A DNA stretch of 64,000 nt, from positions 1-64,000 of the forward strand of contig JBGARZ010000025.1 of assembly GCA_044229975.1 (NCBI GenBank), in the 5' to 3' direction. Each line of letters opens with the position of its first letter. Within the stretch, counting starts at the first letter, position 1. The DNA comes from Polyangiales bacterium. Lineage in GTDB: Bacteria; Myxococcota_A; Polyangia; Polyangiales; Ga0077539. A program made the position numbers and the translations under genes. This document shows, one piece after another, positions 4,818 to 24,009 of the stretch. The notes beneath the pieces were generated by a model. That model did no database searches and was not told where the DNA came from. It saw nothing but the letters and a program-made list of their open reading frames with translations.

Positions 4818-4903
4818 CGACTTCCGCCCTCAGCTTTCTCGTGCGGCGCGCTCTCTTTGCGCCCGACACCGCCGCAGAACTGAGCATCTGAATGCGACGA
4901 TTG

Positions 4904-4917
4904 CAAGACAAGTCTTG
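4904..4917. promoter_or_regulatory. palindromic operator candidate CAAGAC-AA-GTCTTG
   Basis: Perfect 6-2-6 inverted repeat immediately upstream of the XRE gene. Confidence 0.5.
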
Positions 4918-4922
4918 TTTTT

Positions 4923-5402
4923 ATGAGGCGAAGATTCCGTTGGCTCCGCCGGGTGAAGCCGACCAGTGCGGAGCGGGCAGACCTCTACGCGCGAGGTAGC
5001 TACCGGACGATCCTTGCGCGCGTGGCGGCGAATGCTCGCCGGTTGCGGGAGGCGCGCGGCTGGACCCAGGTTCAAGCGGCGGCGGAATGCAGCATGGCGA
5101 CCTTCGTGTTGCAGACCGTTGAGAGCGGGCGGCGCAACTTGTCGGCCACGACGCTGGCCCGCCTCTGCGACGGCTTCGAGGTCGACATCCAGGAGTTGTT
5201 GCTGCCAGCCGCGCCTCTCGCGGAACCAAAGCGTGGGCGACCGAAGAAGGCGTCGATCGCGGCGGACGTGAAACCGGAGGCGACCCCCGATGGTGGTGGC
5301 AGTTCCATCACAAGCTTGCCCGGCGAGACTGGCGCGGAACTCACAGACGCGCCCAGCGGAGGTGCGGCCATTGGTGCCCCGATCAAATCGAACATTGAGT
5401 GA
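4923..5402 (+). CDS. XRE-family HTH transcriptional regulator
   Basis: NARRLREARGWTQVQAAAECSM...VESGRRNLSATTLARLCDGFEV; KRGRPKK AT-hook-like motif; start uncertain. Confidence 0.85.
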   Translation: MRRRFRWLRRVKPTSAERADLYARGSYRTILARVAANARRLREARGWTQVQAAAECSMATFVLQTVESGRRNLSATTLARLCDGFEVDIQELLLPAAPLAEPKRGRPKKASIAADVKPEATPDGGGSSITSLPGETGAELTDAPSGGAAIGAPIKSNIE

Positions 5403-5521
5403 GGCGTCCCCCGGTCTCCACGTGTGCGTGGCCTCAAGCCCGACACTCTGCGTTGCTGGCGTCGCCTCCCACCTCCCGTTGCTGAGACGGCCTCCTTCGC
5501 GTTGACACGCCGCGCGGGCGC

Positions 5522-8500: not shown

Positions 8501-8959
8501 GTCGAGGCTACGAGCGTCACGCCGTTCTCCCCGCGCGCCATGGACCGTGGCCTCGCCGCGGTCACCGTCGCGCTCGCTCGCCAGGGGTGGGAGCAGCTCA
8601 CGCCGGCCCGAGGCGTAAGCCAGATCAAGGCGTTGCGCACCGAGCTCGACGCAGTGGCCGCCACGCTCGATGAGCGCGAGCGTCGTCACGTCGTAGCCCC
8701 AGTGGTGCCGCGTGCTGGAGCGCGCGCGAAGGACATCCTCGACGCGTGGATGAGCCTCGTGGCGCAGTACAAGGCCCACACCGAACTTCAGTACGGCACG
8801 GAGCTCGACTCCAAGCAGGCCAAGGCCCTGCTCCACTCGCCGCTGGAGGAGGTGCCGCCAGAGTTCGAGAAATTCAGGGCGCGGCGCTCGCTGCGCGACG
8901 TCGAGGCCAAGGCCAACGTCTGGGTCAAGACGCTCTCAGCGGACGGCGACGAGGAGTGA
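5522..8959 (+). CDS. drmA: DISARM helicase DrmA (SF2)
   Basis: Walker A FPTGGGKTEAY, YTLRLLT, QDELH, ATNMISVGLD, YIQATSRVGR, PRDRSHYERF; start may be ATG 5540. Confidence 0.9.
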   Translation: MMLSRPMTDAGDVRDALVEALDIDLIGPRPGAPLARERLGRPPSRWYLTGFIVPAGAPVEQRMDEDAAQDDGDGGVDVDTQGAGEGDAEQHTPTRRFFPSSVGLSVLVPGDTEFLRVTLCWGDYTRTEDPDDPQRKRVIWVRTPHREILSVRPTERQTHTVPNGRGLELQVFDREVPSIEGRSLVEPNARALSVFLVNRREIMVDLEGANERRDESYAFQVHLQIDCDTRFIERPDVHGHLSQDPDERTADLQYRDLHEYAVGHGISPVATPDRAECTRVETTWIPSAFVHRVEAVGAAELTLADAALQLDRLGEATDSAVVQASLAPLVVAWRAFITATKMGGLTVERAEVARTLCDDAKRACERLQRGIDALADPTVFQCFTAMNRAIAAAMRQRDGGYVALDATAGRVPTWRPFQLAFILLNLVGMIDPTHADRQRVDLLYFPTGGGKTEAYLGLAAFSLLLRRRRHPGRAGGGVGVLMRYTLRLLTLDQLERATTLLCAMELQRAADPTTWGSWPFEIGLWVGQAATPNRIGDPKNPAPGSAVDRVRQFKNGGGERPVPVERCPWCQHALERASGAEPFDVANAGTPGARLLVRCVRKGLDDRGARCPFSLEGAARRLGPGHLPVCLTDEEVYRRLPAFVIATVDKFASLPWVGPCGAMLGKVTHASEQGYWGPSDGHRLGDKVNVPPPDLVIQDELHLISGPLGTMVGLYESAIDALMERGGVRPKLIASTATVRRAAAQTRALFGREDTAVFPPPMPDRRSLFFARTVVDPHTARRYLGVAAQGRSHKVVMLRVYLALLSASKKHWEAHGGPRRDNPADPYMTLLGYFNSLKELGNARRIVEDEVVSRVRAYSQHVRLQDDPQHFADRTLSYDVEELTSRASTVKVSQTKAALGLTHDHQPTGGDLKPVDVALATNMISVGLDITRLGLMVLYGQPKAAAEYIQATSRVGRDPKRPGLVVTLLNIHRPRDRSHYERFEIFHEAFYRAVEATSVTPFSPRAMDRGLAAVTVALARQGWEQLTPARGVSQIKALRTELDAVAATLDERERRHVVAPVVPRAGARAKDILDAWMSLVAQYKAHTELQYGTELDSKQAKALLHSPLEEVPPEFEKFRARRSLRDVEAKANVWVKTLSADGDEE

Positions 8960-8969
8960 GGGGAAGCCG

Positions 8970-10925
8970 TTGAGCACCGCCAAGAAGAAGGCCGAAGAAA
9001 CCAAGGAAGCCGAGCTGCGGATGAGCAGCGCGATGCTGGGCGCCGGGCCAGGGGCCCTCCTCGATCTGCCCGATACCTCCGTCATGGTCGCGGGTCTCGA
9101 TGTCTGGGGAAACCCGCTCATTCGACGGCCATTCGGTCCCCAGTGGGAGGAGGTGAAGGATGCTCGCCTCCAGGGGTACGTCAGTCGCAGTCTCGGCGCG
9201 ACGGAGCCTGTGCGGCTCTTCCATCCAGCACCTGCCGAGGACGAGGACGGCGAGCCGTCACGCAACGGCATCCGGGCGTGGGAGTTTCCCGAGTGGTTCG
9301 TCACGCGCGACTACGTCGATCCGGAGCGCTCGGAGAGGGGACGGTCGCGTCCGCTCGTTCATCGCCGGGCGCTCACGAAGGGGAAGCTGGTGGTCGAGGA
9401 TCACCGGAGCGCGCCGCGTGCGAAGGGCGACGACAACAAGCCGAAGCTGGTGGTGCCCGTCCGCTTCGTGCGCGCGTGCATTCACGGTCACGTCGAGGAC
9501 CTCGACTGGCAGGGCTTCGCCCACCCCAACCGCGATCGTTGCGACATCCCGAAGTCGCTCCGCCTCGAAGAGCGGGGCACCAGCGGCGACCTCGCGGAGC
9601 TGTTCGTGGTGTGCGCGAACTGCAACACCGAGCAGTCGCTGGTTCGGGCGACGGAGTTCGACAAGACGAAGGGCTGCGGCGCTCTTGGATGGTGCCGCGG
9701 TCGCGAGCTGTGGAAGGGCCGAGGGGTTCGCGTCGAGTGCAAGACCGAGGGGAAGCCGACGCCCTCGCGACTCCTCGTCCGCTCGGCGACCAACGCATGG
9801 TTTCCCGCAGCGTTGAGTGCCATCACGCTCCCGTCACCCGACGTCGCGAAGAGTCCGCTGCGGATGATGGTCGACGCGTTGTGGGACGCGGCGCTCCAGT
9901 CGGTGACCGACCCGATGGAAGTGAAGTTCCTTCGAAAGAACCCCACCTACAAAGCCGACCTCGCGCCGTTCACTGACGACGAGGTCGCGGCCGAGTGCCT
10001 GAAGCGCGTCGCCGAAGAGGACGCCGCCAAGACCGCCGGGGAGAAGAAGAGCGGCGGCCCCAAGCTCGCCGAGCTCGACGCCTTCCTCTCGGTCGATGGG
10101 TTCACCGGCCTCGACGAGATGGGGAGCGTCTTCTTCGCCGAGTCCATTCCGGCTCCGCGTCGCAAGGGGCACGGGACGCGCGCCTTCTTCGACCGCGTGG
10201 TGCTGGTGCATCGCCTGCGCGAGGTGCGGGCACTTGTTGGATTCACCCGCTTCGAGGCCCCGCTCACCACCCCCGACGGCAGCCTCGACCTCGCGGTCTC
10301 TCCGGCCTCGCTCGCCGCCCACAAACAGTGGGTCCCGGCCGTCGAGAACCATGGGGAGGGGATCTTCCTGTCGCTCGACCCGACCCGCGTCCTCCAGTGG
10401 TCACGGACTGACTCCGTGCGGCCGCGCACCGAGCAGTTCCTGCGGGGGTTCGAGAAGTGGCGCACCGAGCGCGGCAACCCCAACGCCCCCTTTCTCGGGA
10501 TGCCGTACGTGCTCCTGCACTCGCTCTCGCATCTGCTCATCACTGCGATGGCGCTGGAGTGCGGCTACCCGTCGAGCGCGATCCGCGAGCGCATCTACGC
10601 GACCGGCGATCGCTTCGGCATCCTCCTCTACACCGCCAGCCCCGACGCGGAGGGCACCCTCGGTGGCCTCGTCGCCACGGGCCGCAGCCTCGAACGTCAT
10701 CTCCAGGAGGCGTTGGAGATCGGCCGCCTTTGCTCCAACGACCCCGTGTGCGCGGGGCATGACCCCGACAACGCCTCGGGAGAACTGACCCTCCAGGGCG
10801 CCGCCTGTCACGGTTGTCTCCTCATCTCGGAGTCGTCGTGCGAGCGGCAGAACAGCTGGCTCGACCGCGCGACGGTGGTGCCGACGGTGGCGCACCAGGG
10901 CGTCGCCTTCTTCGAGGGCTGGTGA
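8970..10925 (+). CDS. drmB: DISARM DrmB (DUF1998 helicase-associated protein)
   Basis: PVRFVRACIHGH, LLHSLSHLLI, IRERIY, CSNDPVC...AACHGCLLISESSCE Zn motif; directly after drmA. Confidence 0.9.
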   Translation: MSTAKKKAEETKEAELRMSSAMLGAGPGALLDLPDTSVMVAGLDVWGNPLIRRPFGPQWEEVKDARLQGYVSRSLGATEPVRLFHPAPAEDEDGEPSRNGIRAWEFPEWFVTRDYVDPERSERGRSRPLVHRRALTKGKLVVEDHRSAPRAKGDDNKPKLVVPVRFVRACIHGHVEDLDWQGFAHPNRDRCDIPKSLRLEERGTSGDLAELFVVCANCNTEQSLVRATEFDKTKGCGALGWCRGRELWKGRGVRVECKTEGKPTPSRLLVRSATNAWFPAALSAITLPSPDVAKSPLRMMVDALWDAALQSVTDPMEVKFLRKNPTYKADLAPFTDDEVAAECLKRVAEEDAAKTAGEKKSGGPKLAELDAFLSVDGFTGLDEMGSVFFAESIPAPRRKGHGTRAFFDRVVLVHRLREVRALVGFTRFEAPLTTPDGSLDLAVSPASLAAHKQWVPAVENHGEGIFLSLDPTRVLQWSRTDSVRPRTEQFLRGFEKWRTERGNPNAPFLGMPYVLLHSLSHLLITAMALECGYPSSAIRERIYATGDRFGILLYTASPDAEGTLGGLVATGRSLERHLQEALEIGRLCSNDPVCAGHDPDNASGELTLQGAACHGCLLISESSCERQNSWLDRATVVPTVAHQGVAFFEGW

Positions 10926-11722
10926 ACTCTTCGGTGGGCGCGCCCTCCGCGCTGGTCGCGAAGAACCTCGCCGAGCTCGCGCGGATGCTCGAAGCCGGCG
11001 CGGTCTCCCTGGAGAGCCCTCGCTTTGCGCTCCAGCAGCGCGGCTTTCCGGCGGCCGCAGTGGAGGCTGCCGCGGTATGGTTCGGTACGCTCCGCGCCGA
11101 CGGTTGGAGCGCCCCGCAGGTCGCTCGTCTGGTGGCGGCGCTGGCGGAGGAGCGGGCGCGCGTCGAGCGAGCGCGCGACGACATCGAGCTGGTGTGGACG
11201 GGCCCGGAGGCGCACTCGGCGGAGAACCGCGACTCGGCGCGGGTGCTGGAGGAGATGTTCGGGGCGGCGACGCGCTCGGTGCTGATGTGCGGCTACAACA
11301 TCCACCAGGGCGCCCACTTCGATGCGCTGGTGCAGGCGATCCACCGCCACCCGGGGTTGCGGGTGCGGTGCTTCACGCACGTGTTCACCCGCGACATGCC
11401 CTACGCAGCGGACGCGCTACAGGCCCACGACCAGAAGCTCCGTGCCCTCTTCGGGCCGACGGTTCGGCAGCGCATGGACTTCTACCGGCCGTCGAACGCC
11501 TTCGTTCAGGAGGCGATGGCGGGCCGCTTCAGCGTCCACGCGAAGTGCGTCGTGGTCGACGGGCGACGGCTCCTCGTGACCTCCGCCAACTTCTCGACGG
11601 CGGCCCAGGAGCGCAACATCGAGGTCGGCCTCGTCCTTGACGATCCGCGGTTGGCGGCCCAGCTCACGACCCTGTTCGACACCCTCGTGGTCCGCGGCGA
11701 CATGACGCGGCACGAGCCTTAG
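10922..11722 (+). CDS. drmC: DISARM DrmC phospholipase D-family nuclease
   Basis: ELVWTGP, HAKCVVVD (HxKxxxxD), TSANFS...NIEVG; GTG overlaps the drmB stop. Confidence 0.9.
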   Translation: MNSSVGAPSALVAKNLAELARMLEAGAVSLESPRFALQQRGFPAAAVEAAAVWFGTLRADGWSAPQVARLVAALAEERARVERARDDIELVWTGPEAHSAENRDSARVLEEMFGAATRSVLMCGYNIHQGAHFDALVQAIHRHPGLRVRCFTHVFTRDMPYAADALQAHDQKLRALFGPTVRQRMDFYRPSNAFVQEAMAGRFSVHAKCVVVDGRRLLVTSANFSTAAQERNIEVGLVLDDPRLAAQLTTLFDTLVVRGDMTRHEP

Positions 11723-11740
11723 CCGGAGAGCGCTTCCCCG

Positions 11741-14700
11741 ATGGCGACATTCACGATCCCGGAGGTAGGGGAGATGGTGCGGGTTCGCGCGAGACGACAC
11801 GTCGTCGAGCACGTCGCCCCGCCAGAGCCCGACCGGCCGAAGCCCCAGCACCTGGTCACCCTCGCGTGCATCGAGGACGACAGCGCCGGGGAGCGCTGCG
11901 ACGTGTTGTGGGAGGCGGAGCCCGACGCCCGGGTGCTCTCCGATCGCGACGGCTCCTTCGCCAGAGCGGGCCGCTTCGACCCGCCCGGTCGCTTCGCCGC
12001 CTGGTACTACAGCATCCGCTGGAACGCCCTCAGCGCCGCCGACCTGAACCGGGTGCAGAGCCCCTTCCGCGCTGGCATCTCCGTCGAGAGCTACCAGTTC
12101 GAGCCGCTCTTCAAGGCGCTCGCACAGCCCCGAGTGCGGCTCTTCATCGCCGACGACGTGGGCCTCGGCAAGACCATCGAGGCCGCCCTCATCGTCCGTG
12201 AGCTCATGCTGCGCCAACGCGTGCGCCGGGTCGTCGTCGCTGCCCCCGCCTCCGTACTCACCCAGTGGCGCGATGAGCTCGACACCCGCTTCGGTCTCAC
12301 CTTCGTCGTCATCGACCGCGAGTACCTCCGCGCCCGCCGTCGCGAGCGCGGTTGGCAGTTCAACCCCTGGAAGACCCATCCCCGCTTCATCATCTCCCAC
12401 GCCCTCCTGCGCGACCCGCACTACACGGCGCCTCTGCGCGAGCTCCTGCGCGAAGACCCCGCCGGGTCGATGCTCGTCCTCGACGAGGCTCACCACGCGG
12501 CCCCCGCGAGCGGCGGACGCACGGCGCACGACTCCGCGTTCACCCGCACGCTGCGTGACCTCGCGCCCCTCTTCGAGCACCGCATCTTCCTCTCGGCGAC
12601 CCCCCACAACGGGCACAGCGCCAGCTTCTCGGCGTTGATGGAGATCCTCGACCCCTCCCGCTTCCTGCGCGGCCTCCCCATCGACCGCAAGGCACGAGAG
12701 GCCGTGATGGTGCGCCGCCTCAAGTCCGAGTTGCGGCGCGTCGGCGTGGAGTTTCCCGAGCGAAAGGTGGAGCGCCTCGCGATCCGCGGTCTCCCCGACG
12801 ACGACCCCGACCTCGTGCTCGCGACGCTCCTCGACGAGTACTGCACGCTGCGAGAAGACGCGGCGGCCAACGAGTCCCGCGAGGTACAGCAGCTCACGTT
12901 CCTCTCCGTGACCACGCTCCGCAAGCGGCTGCTCTCGTCGGTTCGTGCCTTCGCCCGTACGCTCGCGGCGCACCGCGCGGGTCTCGAACGCAGGGCCGCG
13001 AAGCTCGCCGTAGTCCCGGCTCAGGTCGAGGCGCCCGGACCCGACGATGAGCGCGCGGGTGACGATCCGGACAGCATCGAGGAGGGCATGAGCGCGGCGC
13101 TCTCCGCAGTGTCGGCGCAGGTCCCGGCGGCCGCCGACCCTCGCCGGGCGATGGCTCTGCTCGACGAACTCACTCGCCTCGCCGCAGCGCACGAGCGCCG
13201 CCCCGACGCGCGGCTGCGCGCGCTCACCCGGTGGATCCGCGAGCAGCTCCTCACGGCGCCCCCGTCACCTGCGTGGAACCTTCGTCGGCTCATCATCTTC
13301 ACCGAGTACGTCGACACCCAGCGCTACCTCGCCGAACAGCTCGCCCTCGAATTTCGCGACGTGCACGATGGCATCCACTTCCATCTCCGACTCGCGACGC
13401 TCGACGGCCAGCCCGGCAACAGCGACGAGCGCGATGCTCTCAAGCGTCGCTTCAACGCCGACCCCGTGGGCGAGCCGCTGCGCATCCTCGTGTGCACCGA
13501 CGCCGCGCGGGAGGGCATCAACCTCCAGTCGCACTGCACCGACCTGTTCCACTTCGACCTGCCCTGGAACCCCTCCCGGCTCGAACAGCGCAACGGTCGC
13601 ATCGATCGCAAGGGGCAACCCGCGGCGGAGGTTCGCTGCCACTACTTCGTGCTGGAGCAGCGTCCCGAGGACAAGGTGTTGGAGGCCCTGGTGCGCAAGA
13701 CGGAGACCATCCGCCGCGAGCTCGGCTCTCTCGGTGATGTGCTCGTGGCGCGCACCGAAAACCTCCTCCAGAAGGGAATCTCTCGCCGTCACGCGGGCGC
13801 CACGGCGGAGCAGATCAAACAGCTCGCGCTCTTCGCCCCGAAGGTCGCGCCCGCGGCTGGCGAGGAGATCGTCGACGAGCTGCTCGAAGCCCCGTCCGTC
13901 GAGCGCATGAAAGCCGACCTCGGCGACGCCCCGGCGACCCAGGAGGAGCTTCAATCCACCAAGGTCACCAACGACAAGCTGCGCGCCGATGCCGAAGAAC
14001 TCATGGAGTTCAGCGAGGAGTCCTTCCGCCATGCGCTCGACGTCGCGCTGGCGCTCTCCCACGCGCCGCCGCTCGCCCACGACCCCCACAATGACAAGCA
14101 CTGGCACCTCGCGCCGCTCGACGGATCACCAGCGACTCTCCCGCTCCACGCGGGAGTCCGCACCGGGCACCGCATCGACCCCTCCTGGGCCGAGACCCTC
14201 GACGGGCTCCGTATTCCCTATGGGATGGAGCCCGGCCACGACGAGCGCCCTTACCCCGCGTCCGATCGCTGGACGTGGCGTCGTCGGAGTCGGTTGCGCC
14301 CGTTGCGGTTTCGAGCGTCGGCGGTCGCCAACGAGGAGACGGTGCACATGCACCTCGAACACCGCGTGGCGCAGCGGCTCCTCGGCCAGCTCTCCGCACA
14401 AACCTTCACCCGCGACGCCATGGCCCGCGCCACGGTTCTCGCGACCGAGCGCGGCACCGATCGGGTGGTGCTCCTCGGTCGCCTCGTCCTCTTCGGCCCG
14501 CGCGGGGCCCGGCTGCACGACGAGGTGCTCGCCCGCGCCGCGGAGTGGACGGGCGCCGCCAGCGAGGGGCGCGCGCGGCTTCGGGCGATGGGGAGCGACG
14601 CCACCAAGGTCGTCCTCAAGGACCTTCAGACGGCCCTTGCCCGTCCCTCCGACGAGGGGATCACGGACTTCCATCGCCAGCGCTTCCTGAAGTCGCTCCC

Positions 14701-15067
14701 CAACGACGTCGCCGAACTCCGTGATGCTCTCCGCCGGGACGCTCTCACTCGCAGCACGATCATCACCCAGCAGCTCCAGCGCCTCGGCATCGCCCGCGCC
14801 ACCGAGCTGCGCGCGTTGCTCACACGGCAGCAGGACGCCCTTCACACGAAGCTCGCCAACCCGAAGCAGCTGTCGCTCGTGGAGCAGAAGGGCTTCAGTG
14901 AGGCCGATCGCCGGGCGCTCAACAGCATCCTCGGCGGGTGGCGTCAGCGCGTGGAAGCCCTCAAGGCCGAGATCGTCACCGCGCCGCCCGCGGTCGAGGC
15001 CGAGTACGCCGTGCGACACACGCACTTCGAGCTGCTCGGGATCGTCTACCTCACCCGTGGCGGGTAG
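11741..15067 (+). CDS. drmD: DISARM DrmD SNF2-like helicase
   Basis: IADDVGLGKTIEA, DEAHH, SATPHNG, REGINLQ, WNPSRLEQRNGRIDR; in the DISARM cluster. Confidence 0.9.
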   Translation: MATFTIPEVGEMVRVRARRHVVEHVAPPEPDRPKPQHLVTLACIEDDSAGERCDVLWEAEPDARVLSDRDGSFARAGRFDPPGRFAAWYYSIRWNALSAADLNRVQSPFRAGISVESYQFEPLFKALAQPRVRLFIADDVGLGKTIEAALIVRELMLRQRVRRVVVAAPASVLTQWRDELDTRFGLTFVVIDREYLRARRRERGWQFNPWKTHPRFIISHALLRDPHYTAPLRELLREDPAGSMLVLDEAHHAAPASGGRTAHDSAFTRTLRDLAPLFEHRIFLSATPHNGHSASFSALMEILDPSRFLRGLPIDRKAREAVMVRRLKSELRRVGVEFPERKVERLAIRGLPDDDPDLVLATLLDEYCTLREDAAANESREVQQLTFLSVTTLRKRLLSSVRAFARTLAAHRAGLERRAAKLAVVPAQVEAPGPDDERAGDDPDSIEEGMSAALSAVSAQVPAAADPRRAMALLDELTRLAAAHERRPDARLRALTRWIREQLLTAPPSPAWNLRRLIIFTEYVDTQRYLAEQLALEFRDVHDGIHFHLRLATLDGQPGNSDERDALKRRFNADPVGEPLRILVCTDAAREGINLQSHCTDLFHFDLPWNPSRLEQRNGRIDRKGQPAAEVRCHYFVLEQRPEDKVLEALVRKTETIRRELGSLGDVLVARTENLLQKGISRRHAGATAEQIKQLALFAPKVAPAAGEEIVDELLEAPSVERMKADLGDAPATQEELQSTKVTNDKLRADAEELMEFSEESFRHALDVALALSHAPPLAHDPHNDKHWHLAPLDGSPATLPLHAGVRTGHRIDPSWAETLDGLRIPYGMEPGHDERPYPASDRWTWRRRSRLRPLRFRASAVANEETVHMHLEHRVAQRLLGQLSAQTFTRDAMARATVLATERGTDRVVLLGRLVLFGPRGARLHDEVLARAAEWTGAASEGRARLRAMGSDATKVVLKDLQTALARPSDEGITDFHRQRFLKSLPNDVAELRDALRRDALTRSTIITQQLQRLGIARATELRALLTRQQDALHTKLANPKQLSLVEQKGFSEADRRALNSILGGWRQRVEALKAEIVTAPPAVEAEYAVRHTHFELLGIVYLTRGG

Positions 15068-15119
15068 CAGCGCGTTGGTCGCGGGTCGGCCGTCGGGTCG
15101 GCCGTGATAGGTTGCGGCC

Positions 15120-16370
15120 ATGGCCCGGCTCACGGCGATCGAACTCACGCACTGGCGTTCGTTCAAGGGTACCCAACGACTCGAACTCCGTCCTCTCACC
15201 CTCCTCTTCGGCTGGAACAACACGGGCAAGAGCGCCCTACTTCGCGCGCTCCCAATCATCGCAGACTCCGTCCGCGACGAAGCGGTGACGCCGCTCAACC
15301 TCACCGGCTCCGCCGCGCGCGGCGCCACCTTCCGCGACGTGAGCTGGAGACGCAGCCGCAAGGGTCTCTCCGTCGCGCTGGAGTGGGAGGGCACCCCGAC
15401 GCCGCGCTACGAAGTCGACCTCATGCTCTACGACTCCGAGGGTGCCCCTCCACGCATCCTTGTCGAGCACTTCACCTGGCGCGATGAGAAGGGGGCGCTC
15501 ACGACCGGAAACTGGCTTCGCACCGAACCCGTGGGCTCCGAACTGACCTACCAGACGGGCGAATCGCCCCCGAACCGCTCCGCCATTCAGTTCGCAGGTC
15601 TGCGTCCGCGAACACGGGACAAGTCCCTCGCCGACACGCTCGCTGGCCTCGCTCCACGATTGGATTCGCTCGACACCGCGGTGCAGTGGATCGGGTCAGT
15701 GCGGGCCGCGCCGCTCGGGCCCGTTGCGGTTCCCGAGGGGACCCCGCGGCTCATCGCGCCCGACGGGTCGGACGTCGTGACGTTCCTCCAGTCGGAGCCG
15801 GGCGTGCTCCGCTCCGTCAACGAGTGGTTTCGAGAACACGCGGCGCGGGAGTTGGAGCTTCAGCAGATCGCGCCTGGCTTCGTGCAGCCCGCGTTTCGAC
15901 ACCTGGCCAGCACGCACGCGCAGCGCCTTGCCGACCACGGTGAAGGGCTGTTGCAGGTGCTCCCGGTGCTTACCGCGCTCGCCCGAGCCCGGCGCGAGGA
16001 AGCGGACCCGGCGGCGCCGCGCATCGTCGCCATCGAAGACCCGGAGTCGCACCTTCACCCCAGGCTTCAGCACGCGCTGGCGAACCACTTCGCTGGCGCT
16101 GCCATGATTGCGACGCCGCCCTCGGTGGTGTTGGAGACCCACTCCCAACATTTCCTCCTGGCCGTCCAACTGGCGGTGGCGCGCGGCGAACTCGACCCGT
16201 CCCGTGTGGCGATCTACTGGGTATCCCAGGACAGTGACGGCGTGAGCGATGCCGTCCAGATCAACGTCGAGCCGAACGGCGATCTCCGCGGCTGGCCTCC
16301 CGGGGTCTACGACGACGTCGTCGACATGGCGCGCGACCTCACCGCGCAGCGATGGGGCATCTCCCCGTGA
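15120..16370 (+). CDS. ABC/AAA_21-type ATPase with DUF3696-like C-terminus
   Basis: Walker A FGWNNTGKS, signature-like HGEGLLQVLP, Walker B/D-loop IEDPESHLHP, H-loop ETHS, C-terminal NGDLRGWPPGVYD. Confidence 0.85.
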   Translation: MARLTAIELTHWRSFKGTQRLELRPLTLLFGWNNTGKSALLRALPIIADSVRDEAVTPLNLTGSAARGATFRDVSWRRSRKGLSVALEWEGTPTPRYEVDLMLYDSEGAPPRILVEHFTWRDEKGALTTGNWLRTEPVGSELTYQTGESPPNRSAIQFAGLRPRTRDKSLADTLAGLAPRLDSLDTAVQWIGSVRAAPLGPVAVPEGTPRLIAPDGSDVVTFLQSEPGVLRSVNEWFREHAARELELQQIAPGFVQPAFRHLASTHAQRLADHGEGLLQVLPVLTALARARREEADPAAPRIVAIEDPESHLHPRLQHALANHFAGAAMIATPPSVVLETHSQHFLLAVQLAVARGELDPSRVAIYWVSQDSDGVSDAVQINVEPNGDLRGWPPGVYDDVVDMARDLTAQRWGISP

Positions 16371-17419
16371 TCTTCATCGTCCCAGCGGCGTTGTTGCGCG
16401 ATGACCTCCCGGAGCTGCCCGAGCTGCTGTCAATCGTGCGCCTCGGGTTTCATGGTCGCCACCGCGTGCTCACCGATCCTGCGTGGCGGGCCGAACCGTC
16501 CGCCCACCCGTTGCACTCGTGGTTGCGAACGCGTGCCGCGCCAGAAGCGCGGTGGCTTCGTGAGGCATTCGATGCGGCGCTCCGGTCGTCGCCACCACCA
16601 GAGCGAGTCGCCGTCCGCCTGACCGACGGCGCGACGTCGAGCTGGGCGACGTCACCGCCGACCCTCACCGTCGCCGACGCCTTCACGCTCGCGCACGCGC
16701 CGCTCCACCTCCTGCTGGAGGATTTCGAGGACGACGCCAGCCTCCTCTTCTGGGCTGGGCGCGCACTGGAAAGCCCATCCTGGGCTCGCATCGAGAGGGC
16801 TCGACGCAGCGGGTGGTTGGAGGTCGAGCACGCTGGCGGCAACGGCAGCATGCAGCGACGGGTCGACTCCCTCGACGTCGGTCGCGCCCTGCGCAGTTGG
16901 GCGATGTTCGATCACGATGGCCTGCAACCCGGCGACGACAACCGTAGCTCACAGGCGAAGCGCCTCGCCGAGAGCTGCGTCCGAAAAGGTATCGAGCAGC
17001 ACGGCCTCGCCCGACGCTCGATCGAGAATTACCTGCCGATCGATCTGCTCGATCGGTGGGCAAACGATCACTTCAAGGACGAAACCGAAGGCAGCGCGAC
17101 GCGACCAGAGACGCTCACCCGCCGACGCGCTCTCGTCGACGCATTCCGACGGATGACGCGCGAGCAGCGGCGCCACTACTACATGCGCGAGGGGCTACGG
17201 AAGGACGCCACGCGCGACGTGGGCCTGGACCCGGTGTTCTCGATGATCCCGTGGGAGGATCAGGCCGAGCTCGCATGCGGCTTCGATCAGTACGACCGCC
17301 GCGGCGTCTCGCGTCTGTTCGGCCACCCGCGCGCGCAGGTGAGGGCAGGGGTGCTCACCGCCGATGGTTCGGCGAGCGAGCTGCGCGCCATTCTTGACTC
17401 GATCGTGGCGAGGCTTTGA
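16367..17419 (+). CDS. hypothetical protein with TOPRIM-like (OLD-type) nuclease motifs
   Basis: GTG overlaps the ATPase stop; LLLEDFEDD, HAGG, MFDHD (DxD) and RRSIENYLP occur in OLD-TOPRIM order. Confidence 0.65.
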   Translation: MIFIVPAALLRDDLPELPELLSIVRLGFHGRHRVLTDPAWRAEPSAHPLHSWLRTRAAPEARWLREAFDAALRSSPPPERVAVRLTDGATSSWATSPPTLTVADAFTLAHAPLHLLLEDFEDDASLLFWAGRALESPSWARIERARRSGWLEVEHAGGNGSMQRRVDSLDVGRALRSWAMFDHDGLQPGDDNRSSQAKRLAESCVRKGIEQHGLARRSIENYLPIDLLDRWANDHFKDETEGSATRPETLTRRRALVDAFRRMTREQRRHYYMREGLRKDATRDVGLDPVFSMIPWEDQAELACGFDQYDRRGVSRLFGHPRAQVRAGVLTADGSASELRAILDSIVARL

Positions 17420-19116
17420 TGGGTGCTTCGAGAGAAGGAGCCGGGTCGAGCGTCCCGTATTACGTCCGCGAGCCGCAGGTTCAACGGTTGCCGACCCTGC
17501 TGACGGCGATCCGCGAGGGGGCGCTGCGCATCCCGGACTTCCAGCGCGCGTTCGTCTGGAAGGACTCGCAGCGCCTCAAACTGTTCGACAGCATCGTGCA
17601 GGGTTTTCCCATCGGGACAGTCCTGGTCTGGCGTACAGCGAACCCTGGTCAGGTCGGCACCATCGATCGGGTGGGGCCGCTCGTCCTTCCTCCACCTACG
17701 CCGCAATGGAACCAGGGAGGCGACCTCCTCATCGACGGCCAACAGCGGTTGACCACGCTCTACACGGCGTTGAGTCCGAATCCCCTCCCGGGTGGCGAGG
17801 ACTGGGACGACATGATCGGTCAAGCGACCCTCGTCTATGGCAGCGAGGAGGCGGCGCGAAAGTGGGGGGTCTACTTCGACGCGATCGAGAACGAGTTCTC
17901 CCTCGCTCCGCGTCACGGCCCTGTGCCCGCGCGCTACGTGCCGCTCTATCTGCTCCTCCGCAACATCCCGCTGTACCGGTTTCTCCCCACCCGCGAACGG
18001 ATACTCTCGCCACAACAGATCGAGCGCGTCGAAGAGCTGGCCTCTCGCTTCAAGGACTACGCCGTCCCCGTGGTGCCCGTGGTCACTGACGACATCGCCA
18101 CCGCGGTGCAGAGCTTCGAGCGCGTCAACACCCGCGCCACCAAGCTCACCCAGTTCGACATCGCCCACGCTCTCGGCCGACGCCAGAAGGTCAATCTCGC
18201 CGAGACCTTCCGTTCGATCCGCGAGCGGGTCGAGGCGACGGGGTGGGGCGAGATCGACGACAACTCCCTCGGCTACACCACCAAGCTCGCCGTCGGACTC
18301 CAGGCCTACTCGTACGGCGCCGTTCGCTTCGTCGAAGGGCTCGCACTGGCGAAGGACCTCCCCGACCGCGTCGGGACGGCCTTCGAGCGGGCGATCGGGT
18401 TTCTGCGCGCGTACTGCGGCGTCCATGGCGAGAAGGCCATCCCCTACAAGTTCCAGCTCGTGCTCCTCGCCGACCTCTTCAGACTCGATCAGGAGTCGCC
18501 CTACCCCGACATCGTGGTGGGCGCGACGCGCTGGTTCTGGATGACCACCTTCACCGAGCACTTCGCCAGTCAGCGGAAGATCAAGTCCACGAACGACGGC
18601 CTCCAAGCGCTCGCACGTGGCGACATCCCCGACCGAGTCGTTGATGATCTCCACCTCAACCCGATCAAGGATCTGGCGTTCAACCATGCGCGAGTGAAGG
18701 GGTTCCTTCTGTGGCTGGCGAAGACCTGCGATCCCCGAGGCGTGGACGGCTCCTCCTTGCGGATCCCGCATGAGCTCGGGGTGCGTGGCAACGCTGTGCT
18801 GCACCCGCTCGTCCCGCGATCGCAGCTCCCCGCGGACCTGCTTCGCCGAGCAGGCAACGTGCTTCTCTGCGCGCCCGAGGACGTCGACTCGCTGCGAGAC
18901 CGTCTCCTCACCCGGACGAGCGATTGCTCACCCGAGTGGCTGGAGAGTCACGCCGTCGGCCCGGTCGCCCGTGACCTCCTGATCCATCGCGATTACGTGG
19001 GTTTCGTCGAGGCACGACAGCACGAACTCGACCTACGAGAGCGCGCCTTCGTGCAGCCTCTCGGTCTTGAGTACACCAATGAGCCCATCGCTTCGAGCGA
19101 CGATGACGAGACCTAG
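17419..19116 (+). CDS. DUF262-domain protein (GmrSD/SspE-like)
   Basis: IPDFQRAFVW, DSIVQGFPIGTVLVW, LIDGQQRLTTL, FERVN; C-terminal HPLVP...GNVLL resembles a degenerate DUF1524/HNH; TGATG coupling to the upstream gene. Confidence 0.85.
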   Translation: MGASREGAGSSVPYYVREPQVQRLPTLLTAIREGALRIPDFQRAFVWKDSQRLKLFDSIVQGFPIGTVLVWRTANPGQVGTIDRVGPLVLPPPTPQWNQGGDLLIDGQQRLTTLYTALSPNPLPGGEDWDDMIGQATLVYGSEEAARKWGVYFDAIENEFSLAPRHGPVPARYVPLYLLLRNIPLYRFLPTRERILSPQQIERVEELASRFKDYAVPVVPVVTDDIATAVQSFERVNTRATKLTQFDIAHALGRRQKVNLAETFRSIRERVEATGWGEIDDNSLGYTTKLAVGLQAYSYGAVRFVEGLALAKDLPDRVGTAFERAIGFLRAYCGVHGEKAIPYKFQLVLLADLFRLDQESPYPDIVVGATRWFWMTTFTEHFASQRKIKSTNDGLQALARGDIPDRVVDDLHLNPIKDLAFNHARVKGFLLWLAKTCDPRGVDGSSLRIPHELGVRGNAVLHPLVPRSQLPADLLRRAGNVLLCAPEDVDSLRDRLLTRTSDCSPEWLESHAVGPVARDLLIHRDYVGFVEARQHELDLRERAFVQPLGLEYTNEPIASSDDDET

Positions 19117-22100
19117 AGACAACCGCGACCCCGCCTCGCTCCACCGCGCGTGGATCGGCCTGCTCCAGCCCGATGGCATCGTGGTGTCCACCGCCGCGCT
19201 CGTCGACGCCGGGCTCAGCCCCGACCCCATCGCCCACGGTGAGCTCGACCGCTTGCGGGCTCTCTGCGGGCTCGCCCCCGAGAAGCCCCGCGACCGCGAC
19301 CCGGTCGAGGCGCCGCGCATGTTCGTCGCCCAGGCCCTCGCCCGGCTCTTCGTCGAGGTGCTCGGCTGCGACCCCGAGTGGATCCACGGCACCACCGCCC
19401 AGCCCTTTCCCGAGGACCGGCACGGTCTCAAGCGGGTGCTCACCGAGTTCAACGGAGAAGAACTCTCCCCCACCTTCGCCATCGAGAACCCCAACCGCGG
19501 CACCGCCCACGCTGACCGTCGCTGGCTCTGCCTCCTGAAGGAACTCTCCTCCGACTACGACCTCGACAAGCCGCAAGGCGACTACACCGCCGCGCATTGG
19601 GTCGCCTCGCCGATGGCGAAGTTCGAGCGCCTCCTCCGCGAGACCAACGTCCCCATCGGCGTGATCTCCAACGAGACCGAGCTGCGCCTGGTGTTCGCAC
19701 CGCCGGGGGAGGGCGCCGGGGTGATGAGCTTCCCGGTCGCGCTGCTGCTCGGGTCCGAGTCTGACATGGCGCTCGGTGCGCTGGTGATGCTCCTCGGGCA
19801 CGCTCGCTGGCTCGACGGAACCCCCGACGGGGCGGCCACGCGCGACCGTGACAAGCAGTTCCTCCCGCACCTCCTGGAGGAGAGCCGGAAGTACCAGAAC
19901 ACTGTGTCCACGGCCCTCGCCGAGCAGGTGCTCGACGCCCTCTGGGAACTCCTCCGCGGCCTCCAATCCGCCCACGCCGCCACGCAGGGAGCCCTCCTCC
20001 GCGACTGGGTGAACGACCGCCCCGACGAGATCTACGGTGGCCTCCTCGCCGTGCTCCTCCGCCTCGTGTTTCTGCTCTACGCCGAGGACCGCGGACAGCT
20101 CCCGTCGGTGGGCTTCTACGCCGCCAGCTATGGCGTGCGCTCGCTCTACGAGAAGCTCCGCGACGACGACGGTCGCCACCCCGACACCATGAACCTCCGC
20201 CTCGGGGCGTGGGCCCGGCTGCTTGCCACCTTCCGCCTCGTCCACGACGGCGGCGGTCACGGCGAGGTGCACCTCCCGGCTCGCGAGGGGGCGCTGTTCT
20301 CGCCGGACACCCACGCCTTCCTCGAAGGCCGCCCGTGGGGCTCCCACGCGCAGCGGGGCGAGGCCCTCGACGTGCCCGCGATCCCCGACGGGGTGGTGTT
20401 CAAGGTGCTGGAGAAGCTCCTCCGCGTCGACCGCGAGGACCTCTCCTACAAGACCCTCGGCGTCGAGGAGCTGGGCTCCGTCTACGAGTCCATGATGGGC
20501 TTCACGGTGCTCACCACCACCGGGCACTCGCTCGCCCTCAAGCCTGATGACGTCGTCGTCGACCTCCAGGCGCTGCTCGCCCTGCCCGGCAAGGAACGCG
20601 CGAAGTACCTCGCCGACAAGGCCGACGCCACCGTCGCGGGCAAGTCACAGGACGCCCTGCGCACGGCCTCCACCATCGAAGAGCTCGCAGACGCCCTCGC
20701 GAAGTCCCGCTCGCCCCGTACGCCCGCGATCGTCCAGCCGGGTTCGCTGGTGTTGCAGCCCACGGCCGAGCGGCGGCGCTCCGGCTCGCATTACACCCCG
20801 CGCACGCTCACCGGACCCATCGTCGAGCGCACCCTCCGCCCGGTGTTCACTGCGCTGGGCGAGGCACCCACCCACGAGCAGATCCTCGCGCTCAAGGTGT
20901 GCGACCCGGCCATGGGCAGCGGGGCCTTCCTCGTGGCGGCCTGCCGCTGGCTGGGCGATCGCCTCTACGAGGTCTGGCAGCGCGACGGTGGAAGCGCGAA
21001 GCCCGTCGTGGTCGCGAAGATCACCCCCGACGACGACGAGCGCATGGTGGCGAGGCGGCTGGTCGCGCAGCACTGCCTTTACGGCGTCGACAAGAATCCC
21101 TTCGCGGTCAACCTCGCCCGGCTCTCGCTCTGGCTGGAGACGCTGGCGAAGGAGCACCCGTTTACGTTCCTCGACCACGTGCTGCGCGAGGGGGACTCGC
21201 TGGTGGGGGTGAGCCGCAAGCAGGTGCAGTACCTGCGGTTGGAGCCCATCGCGGCGGAGGTGCAGCTTGAGACGCTGCCGATGAGCGTGTTCGAAGGGGT
21301 GAAGAGGGCCGAGGCGAACCGCGCAGAGATCCGCGAGCTGGCGCTGTCCGACGACACGGCGCAGAAGCGGCGGCTGCTCGATGAGTCCGAGACGTCGACG
21401 GCGTTCTTGCGGGAGGTGGGCGACGCGCTGGTGGCAACGTTCTTCGCGCACACCAAGGAGGGCGAGCGGAAGAAGGCCATGACGGCGCTGCGGGAGGGCC
21501 TGCTGGCGGACAAGAACGCCGAGGTAACACTCGCGGCAGCGAAGGGGCTGAAGCTGCGGCCGTTCCATTGGGAGCTGGAGTTTCCCGAGGTGTTCAGTCG
21601 GGACAATGGTGGGTTTGACGCGATCGTGGGGAATCCGCCGTTTGCGGGGAAGAATACCAATTTTGCGAGCAGCGGTGAGCTCTATGTCTACTTTCTGGTC
21701 GACGCGTTTCCAGAGGGTCATGGCAGCGCGGACTTGGTTGCGTTCTTTTTTCGTCGCTCATTCTCGTTGCTTCGAGAGGGTGGAACGCTCGGCCTGATCG
21801 CGACCAACAGCATCGCGCAGGGAGACACGCGCGGCACTGGCTTGCGATGGATCTGCAACAACGGCGGCAAGATCTACGAGTCTAGGCGTAATGTCAGATG
21901 GCCTGGAACGGCGGCGGTTTCGGTCAGCGTCGTGCACATCGCCCGAACGCGCGACGAACTGCCACTCGTACGATTGGACGATCGTGTGGTTAGCCGGGTG
22001 ACGGCGTTCCTGCTTCCTAGCGGGATCAACGATGATCCAGAGAGAATTCAAGCGAACGGCGGCCGGTGCTTCGTTGGCAGTTACGTCCTCGGTATGGGGT

Positions 22101-23239
22101 TCCTGTTCGACGATCGGGAGCCAACCTCGACCCCGATTTCTGAACTCCATCGCCTTCTCGATAAAAATCCCCGCAACGGCGAGAGGGTCTTTCCATTCCA
22201 GGGCGGGGAGCAGATCAACGCGGATCCCAGGCAGGCTGCGAGACGATGGGTGATCAACTTCGCGGACTTTGACTACGAGAAAGCTCAGTGCTGGCCAGAC
22301 CTGCTGGCAATCGTTGAGTCAAAGGTCAAGCCTGAGCGAGAGCGTCTTGGAAACAATACCGATGCCCGTCGACGCAAGGCAAACTGGTGGCGTTGGGGGC
22401 AATACGCCCATGCCTTGCAGTCGGCTCTGGAAGGCTTCGATTTTGTGTTTGCGTGTTCCCAGGTAAGCAGCCACTTGGCATTTGTATTGCAGTCGGCGAG
22501 GTACATTTTCGGGCACACGGTTGTGGTTGTTCCCTCTCAAGGATATTGTAGTTTCGCAGTCCTTCAGTCATCGCTTCACGAGCGATGGGCTCGCGTTTTC
22601 GGGTCGACCCTGGAAGATCGTCTGCGCTACACCCCTTCGGATTGCTTTGATACCTTCCCCTTCCCGCTCGATTGGGAGACAGACCCCGCACTCGAAGCCG
22701 CGGGTCACGCGTATCACGAGTTTCGCGCGAAGCTCATGATCGACAACAACGAGGGTCTGACCGCGACCTACAATCGCTTCCACAGTCGCGAGGATGAGAG
22801 CCTCGGCATCGTCCAACTCCGCGAACTGCATGCGGCGATGGACCGTGCGGTGCTCGATGCCTACGGGTGGTACGACCTCCAGCCGACGTGCGAGTTCCTG
22901 TTGGAGTTCGAGGTCGCGGAGGAGGACGGCCGGAAGAAGAAGCCCTGGCGCTACCGTTGGCCCGATACGACGCGTGACGAGGTGCTGGCGCGGCTGCTGG
23001 AGCTCAACGGCCAGCGGGCGGCGGCGGAACGCGCGGAAATGGCATTGAGGGCCGAAGCGGCGGCGGCGAAGGCTGCGGAGGAGGGGCGCGCGGCGGCGGA
23101 GGCGAAGGCAGCGAAGACCCAGGGAAAGAACGCGAGCGCATCGACGGCCACAGAGAAGCCGAAGCGACCGAAGCGAAAGAAGGACGAGAAGCAGGCGGCG
23201 GACGTCGTCGAAGAAGACAAGCGGCTGCCCGGGACATAG
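19103..23239 (+). CDS. drmMI: DISARM class I N6-adenine methyltransferase DrmMI
   Basis: GSHYTPR, CDPAMGSGAFL (motif I), YGVDKN, IVGNPPF (motif IV), RYTPSDCFDTFPFP; start overlaps the DUF262 gene end. Confidence 0.88.
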   Translation: MTRPRDNRDPASLHRAWIGLLQPDGIVVSTAALVDAGLSPDPIAHGELDRLRALCGLAPEKPRDRDPVEAPRMFVAQALARLFVEVLGCDPEWIHGTTAQPFPEDRHGLKRVLTEFNGEELSPTFAIENPNRGTAHADRRWLCLLKELSSDYDLDKPQGDYTAAHWVASPMAKFERLLRETNVPIGVISNETELRLVFAPPGEGAGVMSFPVALLLGSESDMALGALVMLLGHARWLDGTPDGAATRDRDKQFLPHLLEESRKYQNTVSTALAEQVLDALWELLRGLQSAHAATQGALLRDWVNDRPDEIYGGLLAVLLRLVFLLYAEDRGQLPSVGFYAASYGVRSLYEKLRDDDGRHPDTMNLRLGAWARLLATFRLVHDGGGHGEVHLPAREGALFSPDTHAFLEGRPWGSHAQRGEALDVPAIPDGVVFKVLEKLLRVDREDLSYKTLGVEELGSVYESMMGFTVLTTTGHSLALKPDDVVVDLQALLALPGKERAKYLADKADATVAGKSQDALRTASTIEELADALAKSRSPRTPAIVQPGSLVLQPTAERRRSGSHYTPRTLTGPIVERTLRPVFTALGEAPTHEQILALKVCDPAMGSGAFLVAACRWLGDRLYEVWQRDGGSAKPVVVAKITPDDDERMVARRLVAQHCLYGVDKNPFAVNLARLSLWLETLAKEHPFTFLDHVLREGDSLVGVSRKQVQYLRLEPIAAEVQLETLPMSVFEGVKRAEANRAEIRELALSDDTAQKRRLLDESETSTAFLREVGDALVATFFAHTKEGERKKAMTALREGLLADKNAEVTLAAAKGLKLRPFHWELEFPEVFSRDNGGFDAIVGNPPFAGKNTNFASSGELYVYFLVDAFPEGHGSADLVAFFFRRSFSLLREGGTLGLIATNSIAQGDTRGTGLRWICNNGGKIYESRRNVRWPGTAAVSVSVVHIARTRDELPLVRLDDRVVSRVTAFLLPSGINDDPERIQANGGRCFVGSYVLGMGFLFDDREPTSTPISELHRLLDKNPRNGERVFPFQGGEQINADPRQAARRWVINFADFDYEKAQCWPDLLAIVESKVKPERERLGNNTDARRRKANWWRWGQYAHALQSALEGFDFVFACSQVSSHLAFVLQSARYIFGHTVVVVPSQGYCSFAVLQSSLHERWARVFGSTLEDRLRYTPSDCFDTFPFPLDWETDPALEAAGHAYHEFRAKLMIDNNEGLTATYNRFHSREDESLGIVQLRELHAAMDRAVLDAYGWYDLQPTCEFLLEFEVAEEDGRKKKPWRYRWPDTTRDEVLARLLELNGQRAAAERAEMALRAEAAAAKAAEEGRAAAEAKAAKTQGKNASASTATEKPKRPKRKKDEKQAADVVEEDKRLPGT

Positions 23240-23310
23240 GGGTTTCGCGGGGGCGATCGTGCGTCAGTGACATGGTCCCAACGGCTGGCGCCGCTCGCCG
23301 GGATGCGAAC

Positions 23311-24009
23311 TCAGGTAAACCAGAGTGTCTGCCCCGACTCGTCGATGATTTGAGCGCCGCCAATCGCGTCGAGCATGTCCTCCTTGAAGGGGCAGAGCGC
23401 TTCGATGGCGTGCGGATAGAACGAACCAAAGGTCTGCTCGAAGGACGCGCGGACGTCGTCGTCGATCGACACAGTGGTGGACTGCCAGTTCGGCTCGATC
23501 TCCAGGATCTTTGCGCGGCTCGCAGGCTCCCATGCGAAGACGGTTCGGATGCCTTCGCGTCGAGCCCGAACGGTCAACTCCCGCCTGGGTGAAGGCAATT
23601 CGAGAGCACCTTGCGCGAAGGTGAGAAGCGCCTGAGACAACTGTTCGAACTCAGCCGAGTTAGCCTCGCTTGAGAAGCTCTTGCCTGCATAGAAGTCCGC
23701 ACCGAAACCATTGAACTTCAACGGGGTGCGATCTTCCTTTTCGACGTGCTTTCGAAGCTCGGAGAGCACCTGCTCGACCTGATCGATCGTCGCGCCCTCG
23801 GGGCCAGAGACATCGAGGAAGCTCAAGACGCTCCGACCGCCGGCCTTCCCTTGCGTCTCACTCTTCACGAGTCGCCCGGGGGACGACCGCGCGACCCACC
23901 GGACGTCGGAGAGGCTCTCGGCCGAGACCGAAGGATTGTGTCGGTAGTAGTGGAACGAGAACGGCTGGTTGCCGTCTTCATCCTTTACCCGCATGGCGCC
24001 AAGGTACAT
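23311..24009 (-). CDS. hypothetical protein
   Basis: ATG 24009 with GGAGG RBS; 232 aa; visibly lower GC than neighbours. Confidence 0.7.
   Translation of the reverse strand: MYLGAMRVKDEDGNQPFSFHYYRHNPSVSAESLSDVRWVARSSPGRLVKSETQGKAGGRSVLSFLDVSGPEGATIDQVEQVLSELRKHVEKEDRTPLKFNGFGADFYAGKSFSSEANSAEFEQLSQALLTFAQGALELPSPRRELTVRARREGIRTVFAWEPASRAKILEIEPNWQSTTVSIDDDVRASFEQTFGSFYPHAIEALCPFKEDMLDAIGGAQIIDESGQTLWFT

Follow-up and report, generated by a model that had tools for sequence, protein, structure and literature searches.

We analyzed a window of 64,000 nucleotides (nt) from contig JBGARZ010000025.1 (assembly GCA_044229975.1, a Polyangiales bacterium), in which three genes on the + strand (15120..19116, hereafter the trio) lie between drmD and drmMI of a DISARM operon. 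The trio, which encodes an ABC ATPase, a TOPRIM protein, and a DUF262 protein, is very likely a copy of the catalogued cassette PDC-M55 and an insertion in DISARM. Judging from the protein sequences and their likeness to known systems, we consider it probable that this PDC-M55 cassette, placed at the drmD-drmMI junction of an ordinary DISARM, works as a relay running from a DUF262 sensor through the ATPase to a TOPRIM nuclease.

Identity of the inserted genes

The trio was identified by scanning the hidden Markov model (HMM) library of PADLOC-DB 2.0.0, in which the top models for the three adjacent same-strand genes were, in gene order, PDC-M55A, PDC-M55B, and PDC-M55C. The first gene (15120..16370, +; 416 amino acids [aa] from an ATG start) encodes an ABC ATPase with a C-terminal DUF3696 that resembles NsnB of the Menshen system, and it matched PDC-M55A at 2e-55 (186.5 bits) over residues 4-409. 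The second (16367..17419, +; 350 aa from a GTG start, or 355 aa from an alternative in-frame ATG at 16352) encodes an N-terminal alpha/beta domain followed by a putative OLD-type TOPRIM nuclease domain; it matched PDC-M55B, the sole family listed for it, at 2.2e-22 over residues 111-345 only. The third (17419..19116, +; 565 aa) encodes a full-length BrxU/GmrSD-like DUF262 protein and matched PDC-M55C at 2.6e-77 over residues 18-564. We found no feature separating the trio from PDC-M55, with which it shares the three families, their order, and their strand.

A preliminary description of this DNA had reported three same-strand genes between drmD and drmMI, chained by start/stop overlaps, and the open reading frames (ORFs) confirm this: GTGA (16367-16370) and TGATG (17417-17421) are both present inside the trio. 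Its domain calls (ABC ATPase, TOPRIM-like, DUF262) agree with the Pfam matches of the first protein (AAA_15/AAA_21 plus DUF3696, the latter at 23.2 bits with a cut-off of 22) and of the third (DUF262/GmrSD_N), and with a fold match for the TOPRIM protein. On the other hand, it had presented the eight genes as an undescribed architecture, whereas the HMM matches place the trio in an already named system, PDC-M55, and embedding in DISARM has been published. In that report (10.1101/2024.01.29.577857), BREX, DISARM, and type I restriction-modification (R-M) systems are described as often containing embedded genes, from which 145 candidate PDC systems were derived; every PDC model was built on a cluster of which one or more members were embedded in a system of these three types. 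PrrC is described there as guarding type I R-M. The arrangement itself is therefore ordinary, being one more case of a published pattern, and it defines no new system. The name PDC-M55 is absent from the main text of the same report, and a full-text literature search gave no paper for it. In the mostly non-subscription literature searched, we found no paper on PDC-M55 or on an HNH-lost GmrSD-like protein accompanied by genes for an ATPase and a TOPRIM protein.

Occurrence of the trio and of DISARM apart from each other

We surveyed 141 other trio loci, comprising 20 from the same phylum, 42 from GTDB (Myxococcota and Pseudomonadota), and 79 from metagenomes and the window's own family, the sets being overlapping and not dereplicated. 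Across the phylum, 25 of 401 genomes, one of them that of the window, matched the PDC-M55B model, and the 20 phylum loci are the best 20 of 32 other places. Of two metagenome scans, the first gave no relative and the second 70 loci, to which a search of the window's family added 9. A tblastn search (E ≤ 1e-3) of the stretches fetched around these loci with the five Drm proteins of the window found no drm gene in any of the three sets (0/20, 0/42, and 0/79). The ATPase gene was present in all 20 phylum loci together with a DUF262 gene or fragment beyond the TOPRIM gene (all three by tblastn alone in 14), the full trio was present in 36 of the 42 GTDB loci and 60 of the 79 others, and the order ATPase-TOPRIM-DUF262 was the same in every locus showing all three genes. 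The closest relatives surveyed, with identities of 57, 45, and 58% (L091, 8 kb downstream) and 52-64% (L153, 2 kb on each side), lie outside DISARM. A further copy is carried by the mobilizable plasmid NZ_CP031083.1, adjacent to a recombinase gene; the annotated features listed there include no drm gene. The 185 ORFs neighboring trio loci (two on each side, from crude gene calls) gave few PADLOC matches, mostly to generic kinases, methylase-like domains, and helicases, and at no locus were components of a single system clearly split between the two flanks. We conclude that the trio is a self-contained cassette, independent of DISARM. Two limits of the survey count against this conclusion: flanks were short at many loci, both exceeding 1 kb in 17/20 phylum and 27/42 GTDB loci and at least one exceeding 1 kb in 54/79 of the remainder, and the 141 loci do not include those of the three TOPRIM homologues nearest to the window's (P0002-P0004, 77-87% identical; P0004 is on a contig of 95.7 kb).

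DISARM was likewise found without the trio. A drmD gene was present in 32 of 61 related genomes, and none of the 18 drmD loci fetched held the trio. In 14 of them drmMI followed drmD, directly in 4 (less than 100 nt between the aligned ends) and after gaps of 0.3-3.2 kb in 10, some of these gaps containing other genes, among them those of an HNH protein (L087), PD-(D/E)xK proteins (L077 and L079), and ORFs of unknown kind. The closest orthologue of the window's DISARM (G422:C10; 57-70% identical) has the order drmA-B-C-D-MI, with drmMI starting 22 nt past the drmD stop. Contigs from two sequencing runs of one study (X1 and X2) join position 15073 to 19127 and omit 4053 nt, and together with the empty junction in G422:C10 they give the approximate bounds of the insertion, 15073..19127. 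Direct joining of drmD to drmMI is thus seen both in G422:C10 and in a sludge-metagenome contig. The empty-site contig comes from a relative and not from the same strain, because a piece of the same depth is ~83% identical in drmD. Another contig of run X1 spans 18223-19532 with 82 differences in 1313 letters (~94% identical) and bridges the last trio gene and drmMI, while the drmD-to-ATPase junction was bridged by no contig piece among the matches listed. Thus, the site exists both empty (G422:C10, X1, and X2) and filled (the ~94% identical relative), and the insertion is real and restricted to a lineage, its filled form being common to a close relative. An assembly artefact was rejected on account of the separate, ~94% identical contig.

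The preliminary description had read the locus as a layered DISARM variant. Against this reading stand the two surveys, in which no drm gene stood beside the trio at 141 other loci and no trio stood in 18 drmD loci, and the finding of the same DISARM without it in G422:C10. A match to an already named system, as seen here with PDC-M55, was among the outcomes that the preliminary description itself had given as refuting it. In its favor, the last trio gene is also joined to drmMI in the ~94% identical relative, so the pairing has been inherited in a narrow lineage.

Several further observations concern cargo in DISARM and variants of the trio. The drmD-drmMI junctions of L076, L077, L078, L079, L080, and L087 hold varied single-gene cargo (HNH, PD-(D/E)xK, and AAA-like), including ORFs of 268-300 aa for which neither Pfam nor PADLOC gave a match. 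In the closest DISARM orthologue, an MqsA-type antitoxin gene and a small neighbor separate drmC from drmD and are on the opposite strand (L071:16009-16770). The genome of the window has a second class I DISARM (L151:10268-17949, on G000:C12) in the order drmD-drmMI-cargo-drmA-B-C, where a ZacA-like gene (4.9e-76), a ZacB-like gene (3.2e-91), a helicase frame, and an uncharacterized 460-aa ORF lie between drmMI and drmA. Cargo in DISARM is therefore common even within this genome. We take Zac to be the Azaca system. Elsewhere in the same genome, a methylase gene, an NsnA/PD-T4-2-like DUF262 gene, and a HEPN gene stand in a row (L150:1839-5404, on G000:C10). Among the trio loci, L168 has a transporter-like gene directly after its ATPase and TOPRIM genes, and L098, L124, and L159 carry, judged by length alone, the same short-third-gene variant as L093 and L174 described below.

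Domain anatomy of the encoded proteins

The ATPase has Walker A (GWNNTGKS, 31-38), R195, GEG (274-276), Walker B (IEDPE, 305-309), and ETHS (339-342) motifs. Its GxG signature and the arginine in place of glutamine are as described for NsnB (PMC12065111), and these residues are highly conserved among 57 aligned rows (G274 in 56, G276 in 57, and R195 in 56). Consistent with this likeness, it matched the PADLOC model of NsnB at 1e-39 and was aligned to NsnB by hhalign with a probability of 100 over residues 3-402. The NsnB match, at 135.3 bits, is nevertheless below that of PDC-M55A at 186.5 bits, whereas a true NsnB scored 343.1 bits with its own model and 82 with PDC-M55A, so the two families are separate. 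The Walker B also differs, being EN in Menshen NsnB, ED in the window, and EE or EQ in most relatives (second position E in 31, Q in 17, and D in 6 of the 57 rows). In a tree of the ATPases, all 54 PDC-M55A rows fell on one side, but support was low (0.43) and the tree was not used. For a complex of two ATPase chains, ATP, and TOPRIM-protein residues 1-112, the predicted score was 0.00 (mark 0.32), which is evidence neither way.

The TOPRIM protein, for which an AlphaFold2 model was obtained with a predicted local distance difference test score (pLDDT) of 96.5, contains E118, GG157-158, D182-x-D184, and RRxIENY (216-222). When residues 109-350 were submitted to VIA-align, OLD TOPRIM domains ranked first (Z 9.4 with a root mean square deviation of 4.2 over 179 aligned residues, and Z 8.3), followed by AriB (7.9), PH0156 (6.3), retron Eco2 (6.3), and Gabija (5.7); these Z values are middling, yet the rows at the top belong to a single family. 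No Foldseek match reached E ≤ 0.001, with OLD chains first by probability (0.80 and 0.75). Pfam has no family for the window protein, and 139 homologues from a profile search gave weak matches only (DUF4276 in 3, and Toprim_3, DUF3226, and RloB in 1 each). E118, G158, D182, and R217 are invariant in these 139 sequences and D184 is kept in >90%; for the GTDB and metagenome loci, conservation of RRxIENYLP is not independent, as this was the search pattern. On the strength of the model and the alignments, PDC-M55B is assigned as a predicted OLD-type TOPRIM nuclease with conserved acidic residues. The N-terminal alpha/beta domain, ~110 aa in length, has an order of elements compatible with an inactive PIN domain. 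The best VIA-align rows for residues 1-111 were HAD-like (Z 5.4); PIN was not among the 50 rows, although the domain may still have this fold, and an ESM Atlas search with this domain gave no usable match. The hhalign probability against nine NsnC proteins was under 2%, inPIN families being described as sharing very little sequence (PMC12065111).

The DUF262 protein shows likeness to BrxU both in structure (Foldseek 7p9k, 4.1e-10) and by profile (2.5e-28 over 16-531 of the profile). It is homologous to BrxU/GmrSD (PMC8565348) over its whole length and shares the DUF262 motifs, including KLFDS, which corresponds to RLFDS, and DGQQR. Its motifs are QR (42-43), W47, KLFDS (54-58), DGQQR (106-110), and F233-x-R-x-N237, and most of their residues are well conserved (Q42 in 51/56, R43 in 52/55, W47 in 56/56, S58 in 54/57, D106 in 57/58, R110 in 55/58, and N237 in 54/58 rows). 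DGxQR is present in all 93 full-length homologues, out of 114 distinct ones. The HNH site, in contrast, appears to be lost. The window protein has VLHPLVP at 460-466, with no D/E-H pair, and the corresponding columns hold D/E in 0/94 rows and H in 16/94 (column 462) and H in 3/94 (column 463), whereas all six BrxU-type controls carry [DE]H[IV]FP. The motif was also absent from a second, independent set (0/84). An intact GmrSD enzyme was rejected on the apparent lack of the HNH pair. In a quick tree of 49 rows, including 33 of the 94 PDC-M55C rows, NsnA (99) and BrxU (99) were separate from each other; this tree is unrooted with long branches and is silent on origin.

Taken as a set, the three proteins belong to the same classes as those of Menshen NsnABC (PMC12065111), namely a DUF262 protein, an ABC ATPase with a DUF3696 tail, and a two-domain effector. 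BECR, TOPRIM, and PLD are given there among the C-terminal effector domains of NsnC, and the putative OLD-type TOPRIM of the window (E118 and D182-x-D184) shares this feature of a C-terminal nuclease effector. However, the gene order is nsnA-nsnB-nsnC in Menshen but ATPase-effector-DUF262 in the window, and NsnA consists of DUF262 and ParBDB without DUF1524, whereas the window protein is BrxU-like with a DUF1524-like tail and was aligned to NsnA by hhalign over residues 18-306 only. Membership in Menshen was rejected on gene order and NsnA architecture. BrxU likewise occurs inside a methylation-based system, BREX, but it has a DHIYP nuclease motif and acts alone (PMC8565348), whereas the PDC-M55C family is without the motif and is encoded together with an ATPase and a TOPRIM protein. 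An ABC ATPase is also paired with an OLD-type TOPRIM domain in PARIS, OLD, Gabija, and HEC-01. The two are fused in OLD and GajA but are separate open frames in the trio; Gabija has a UvrD partner and the trio has no UvrD gene; PARIS has separate ATPase and TOPRIM genes, to which the trio adds the third (DUF262) gene. The AriA, GajA, and HEC-01A models score far below PDC-M55A for the window ATPase, and no AriB match was listed for the trio in PADLOC-DB at E ≤ 0.01.

Proposed mechanism and alternatives

BrxU degrades DNA containing 5-methylcytosine (5mC), 5-hydroxymethylcytosine (5hmC), or glucosylated 5hmC (glc-5hmC), and its D474A and H475A substitutions abolish cutting while nucleotide hydrolysis remains (PMC8565348). 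The DUF262 protein of PDC-M55 would bind modified-cytosine DNA and hydrolyze nucleotides as BrxU does, and it would not cut, because the D/E-H pair of the HNH site is gone. The NsnB-like ATPase may then hold and regulate the TOPRIM protein, as has been modeled for NsnB-NsnC of Menshen and demonstrated for AriA-AriB of PARIS, and the TOPRIM protein, once activated, would degrade DNA or RNA. Menshen has been proposed to consist of a DUF262 sensor, an ABC transducer, and a nuclease effector, with the link from sensor to ATPase stated as unresolved in the source (PMC12065111). In a more specific form, which we offer tentatively as a possible reading, PDC-M55 may be a split type IV restriction system, in which an HNH-lost BrxU-like reader drives an OLD-type TOPRIM nuclease via a Menshen-type ABC ATPase. 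Unmethylated sites enhance the protection given by class I DISARM (10.1101/2021.12.28.474362); therefore, phages with modified DNA would fall to the passenger, in the role that BrxU has for BREX, and the cassette would be an independent system sharing the operon rather than a DISARM subunit. The preliminary description had the cargo covering phages that escape DISARM; a second layer against modified DNA resembling BREX/BrxU is indeed plausible, although the new eight-gene system to which that idea was tied is unsupported. If true, the split type IV reading would link GmrSD/BrxU to Menshen, give DISARM a BrxU-like second layer here, and provide a direct test of signaling from a DUF262 sensor to an ABC ATPase, for which PDC-M55 may be a second family after Menshen. 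The anatomy described above gives the PADLOC candidate PDC-M55 a testable mechanism with named residues, and the filled and empty sites make a clean natural pair with which to ask if DISARM is complemented by a cassette embedded in it.

Several points weigh against the relay. The ligand of the DUF262 protein is not readable from its sequence, SspE sensing phosphorothioate and the trigger of NsnA being unknown (PMC12065111), and sensing in PARIS is done by the ATPase (PMC11464382). The window protein has His462, and N480 is kept in 70/94 rows, which makes an unusual active site possible; the HNH register comes from a sequence alignment with no superposition, the HMMER-BrxU alignment being poor there and the hhalign alignment ending at residue 404. 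In addition, at two of the 70 metagenome loci (L168 and L169) the ATPase and TOPRIM genes are present but the 10 kb downstream contain no match to DUF262, and L093 (10855-12027) and L174 (10717-12072) have a ~390-aa third gene with an altered DGxQR and a different tail containing CxxC. The third gene may therefore be dispensable or exchangeable.

Among the alternatives, a PARIS-like guard survives best, although we consider it unlikely. Here the ATPase would sense a phage protein that counters restriction, for example a DNA mimic, and free the TOPRIM protein to cut host tRNA or DNA, leading to abortive infection and so punishing phages that inhibit DISARM, with the DUF262 protein as an accessory. 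In PARIS, binding of Ocr by the ATPase AriA releases AriB, which cleaves tRNA-Lys (PMC11464382). The resemblance of the TOPRIM protein to AriB (Z 7.9) and the loci in which the third gene is missing or altered would fit such a guard. However, the fold search ranked OLD above AriB, the ATPase resembles NsnB from end to end while AriA models matched it in pieces (~1e-15 versus 2e-55 for PDC-M55A), and the DUF262 gene is present in most loci that are long enough, with its NTPase motif in all 93 full-length copies.

The model of the preliminary description, a DISARM variant of eight co-evolved genes, with the trio depending on or physically working with the Drm proteins, is very improbable. The start/stop overlaps that chain the trio to drmMI and the ~94% identical contig that bridges its last gene and drmMI agree with it, as does a GC content at third codon positions (GC3) of 0.81-0.83 in the trio, slightly under the 0.87-0.91 of drmA-D. 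Yet embedded genes are on the strand of the host system in 96.7% of cases (10.1101/2024.01.29.577857), so the shared strand is no sign of co-evolution, unrelated cargo occupies the junction in other genomes, and the distribution reported above, with the empty site in the closest orthologue, largely refutes it.

A slightly weaker candidate still is an active type IV restriction enzyme, in which the DUF262 protein would cut through a non-canonical nuclease site and the ATPase and TOPRIM protein would form a RloC/PrrC-like back-up module. The whole-length likeness to BrxU and the presence of His462 and Asn480 in the window protein speak for it, but histidine exceeds 16/94 rows in no column from 456 to 483, D/E occurs at 462 in no row, and the word [DE]H[ILVFM]xP was found in the last 40% of only 1 of 93 homologues, where it is not aligned to the HNH site. 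Least probable of all is a cassette with no anti-phage role, such as an anti-plasmid or selfish addiction module riding in defense loci, for which the plasmid copy and the few, mostly generic PADLOC defense matches among the 185 neighboring ORFs could be cited, but the closest solved or modeled relatives of all three domains are anti-phage, and systems found by embedding often have no other defenses nearby, with 7 of 9 tested candidates being active (10.1101/2024.01.29.577857).

Organization of the DISARM operon

All five class I genes are present as open frames on the + strand: drmA, a helicase gene (5540..8959, with an alternative GTG start at 5522; NCBIfam DISARM_DrmAS 1087 bits, cut-off 950; PADLOC DrmA 1.3e-260), drmB (8970..10925; DrmB_fam 509.6 bits, cut-off 240), the PLD gene drmC (10922..11722; DISARM_DrmC_I 145.5 bits, cut-off 133), drmD, encoding an SNF2-like helicase (11741..15067; DISARM_DrmD 931.3 bits, cut-off 610), and the adenine methyltransferase gene drmMI (19103..23239; PADLOC DrmMI E = 0; Pfam Eco57I and N6_Mtase). 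With the NCBIfam cut-offs passed by drmA-D, the DISARM is by its gene content complete and of class I, as the preliminary description had it. Its order, drmA-B-C-D-[trio]-MI, differs from the usual description, in which drmD and drmMI precede the core triplet (10.1101/2021.12.28.474362), and the same permuted order without cargo is seen in G422:C10.

The drmD stop (15067) is 52 nt before the first trio gene, so the cargo is not chained to drmD. At the other end, the last gene of the cassette runs over the native start of drmMI, and the drmMI ATG at 19103 thereby overlaps the last 14 nt of PDC-M55C. This overlap, also reported in the preliminary description, holds for the ATG at 19103, and further in-frame starts exist at 19079 and 19067; the start at 19103 is supported by the closest orthologue, whose drmMI start is at most one codon away. 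From the overlap, translational coupling of drmMI to the cargo is plausible. No sigma-70-like promoter was found in 4700-24000, and terminator-like sites in the same range were at chance level (9 versus 8.5). A gene for an XRE-type helix-turn-helix protein (4923..5402, +; Pfam HTH_31, 1.7e-10) lies directly upstream of drmA on the same strand and is a possible regulator of the operon.

Part of drmMI (21701-22741), overlapping the target-recognition region, has a GC content of 58% compared with 69% for the remaining gene and is scarcely covered by the contigs of relatives; it is likely a recently swapped specificity domain. Downstream of drmMI, three ORFs (24011-24784, -; 24721-25461, -; and 25562-26851, +) had no Pfam or PADLOC match and are possibly further genes of a defense island.

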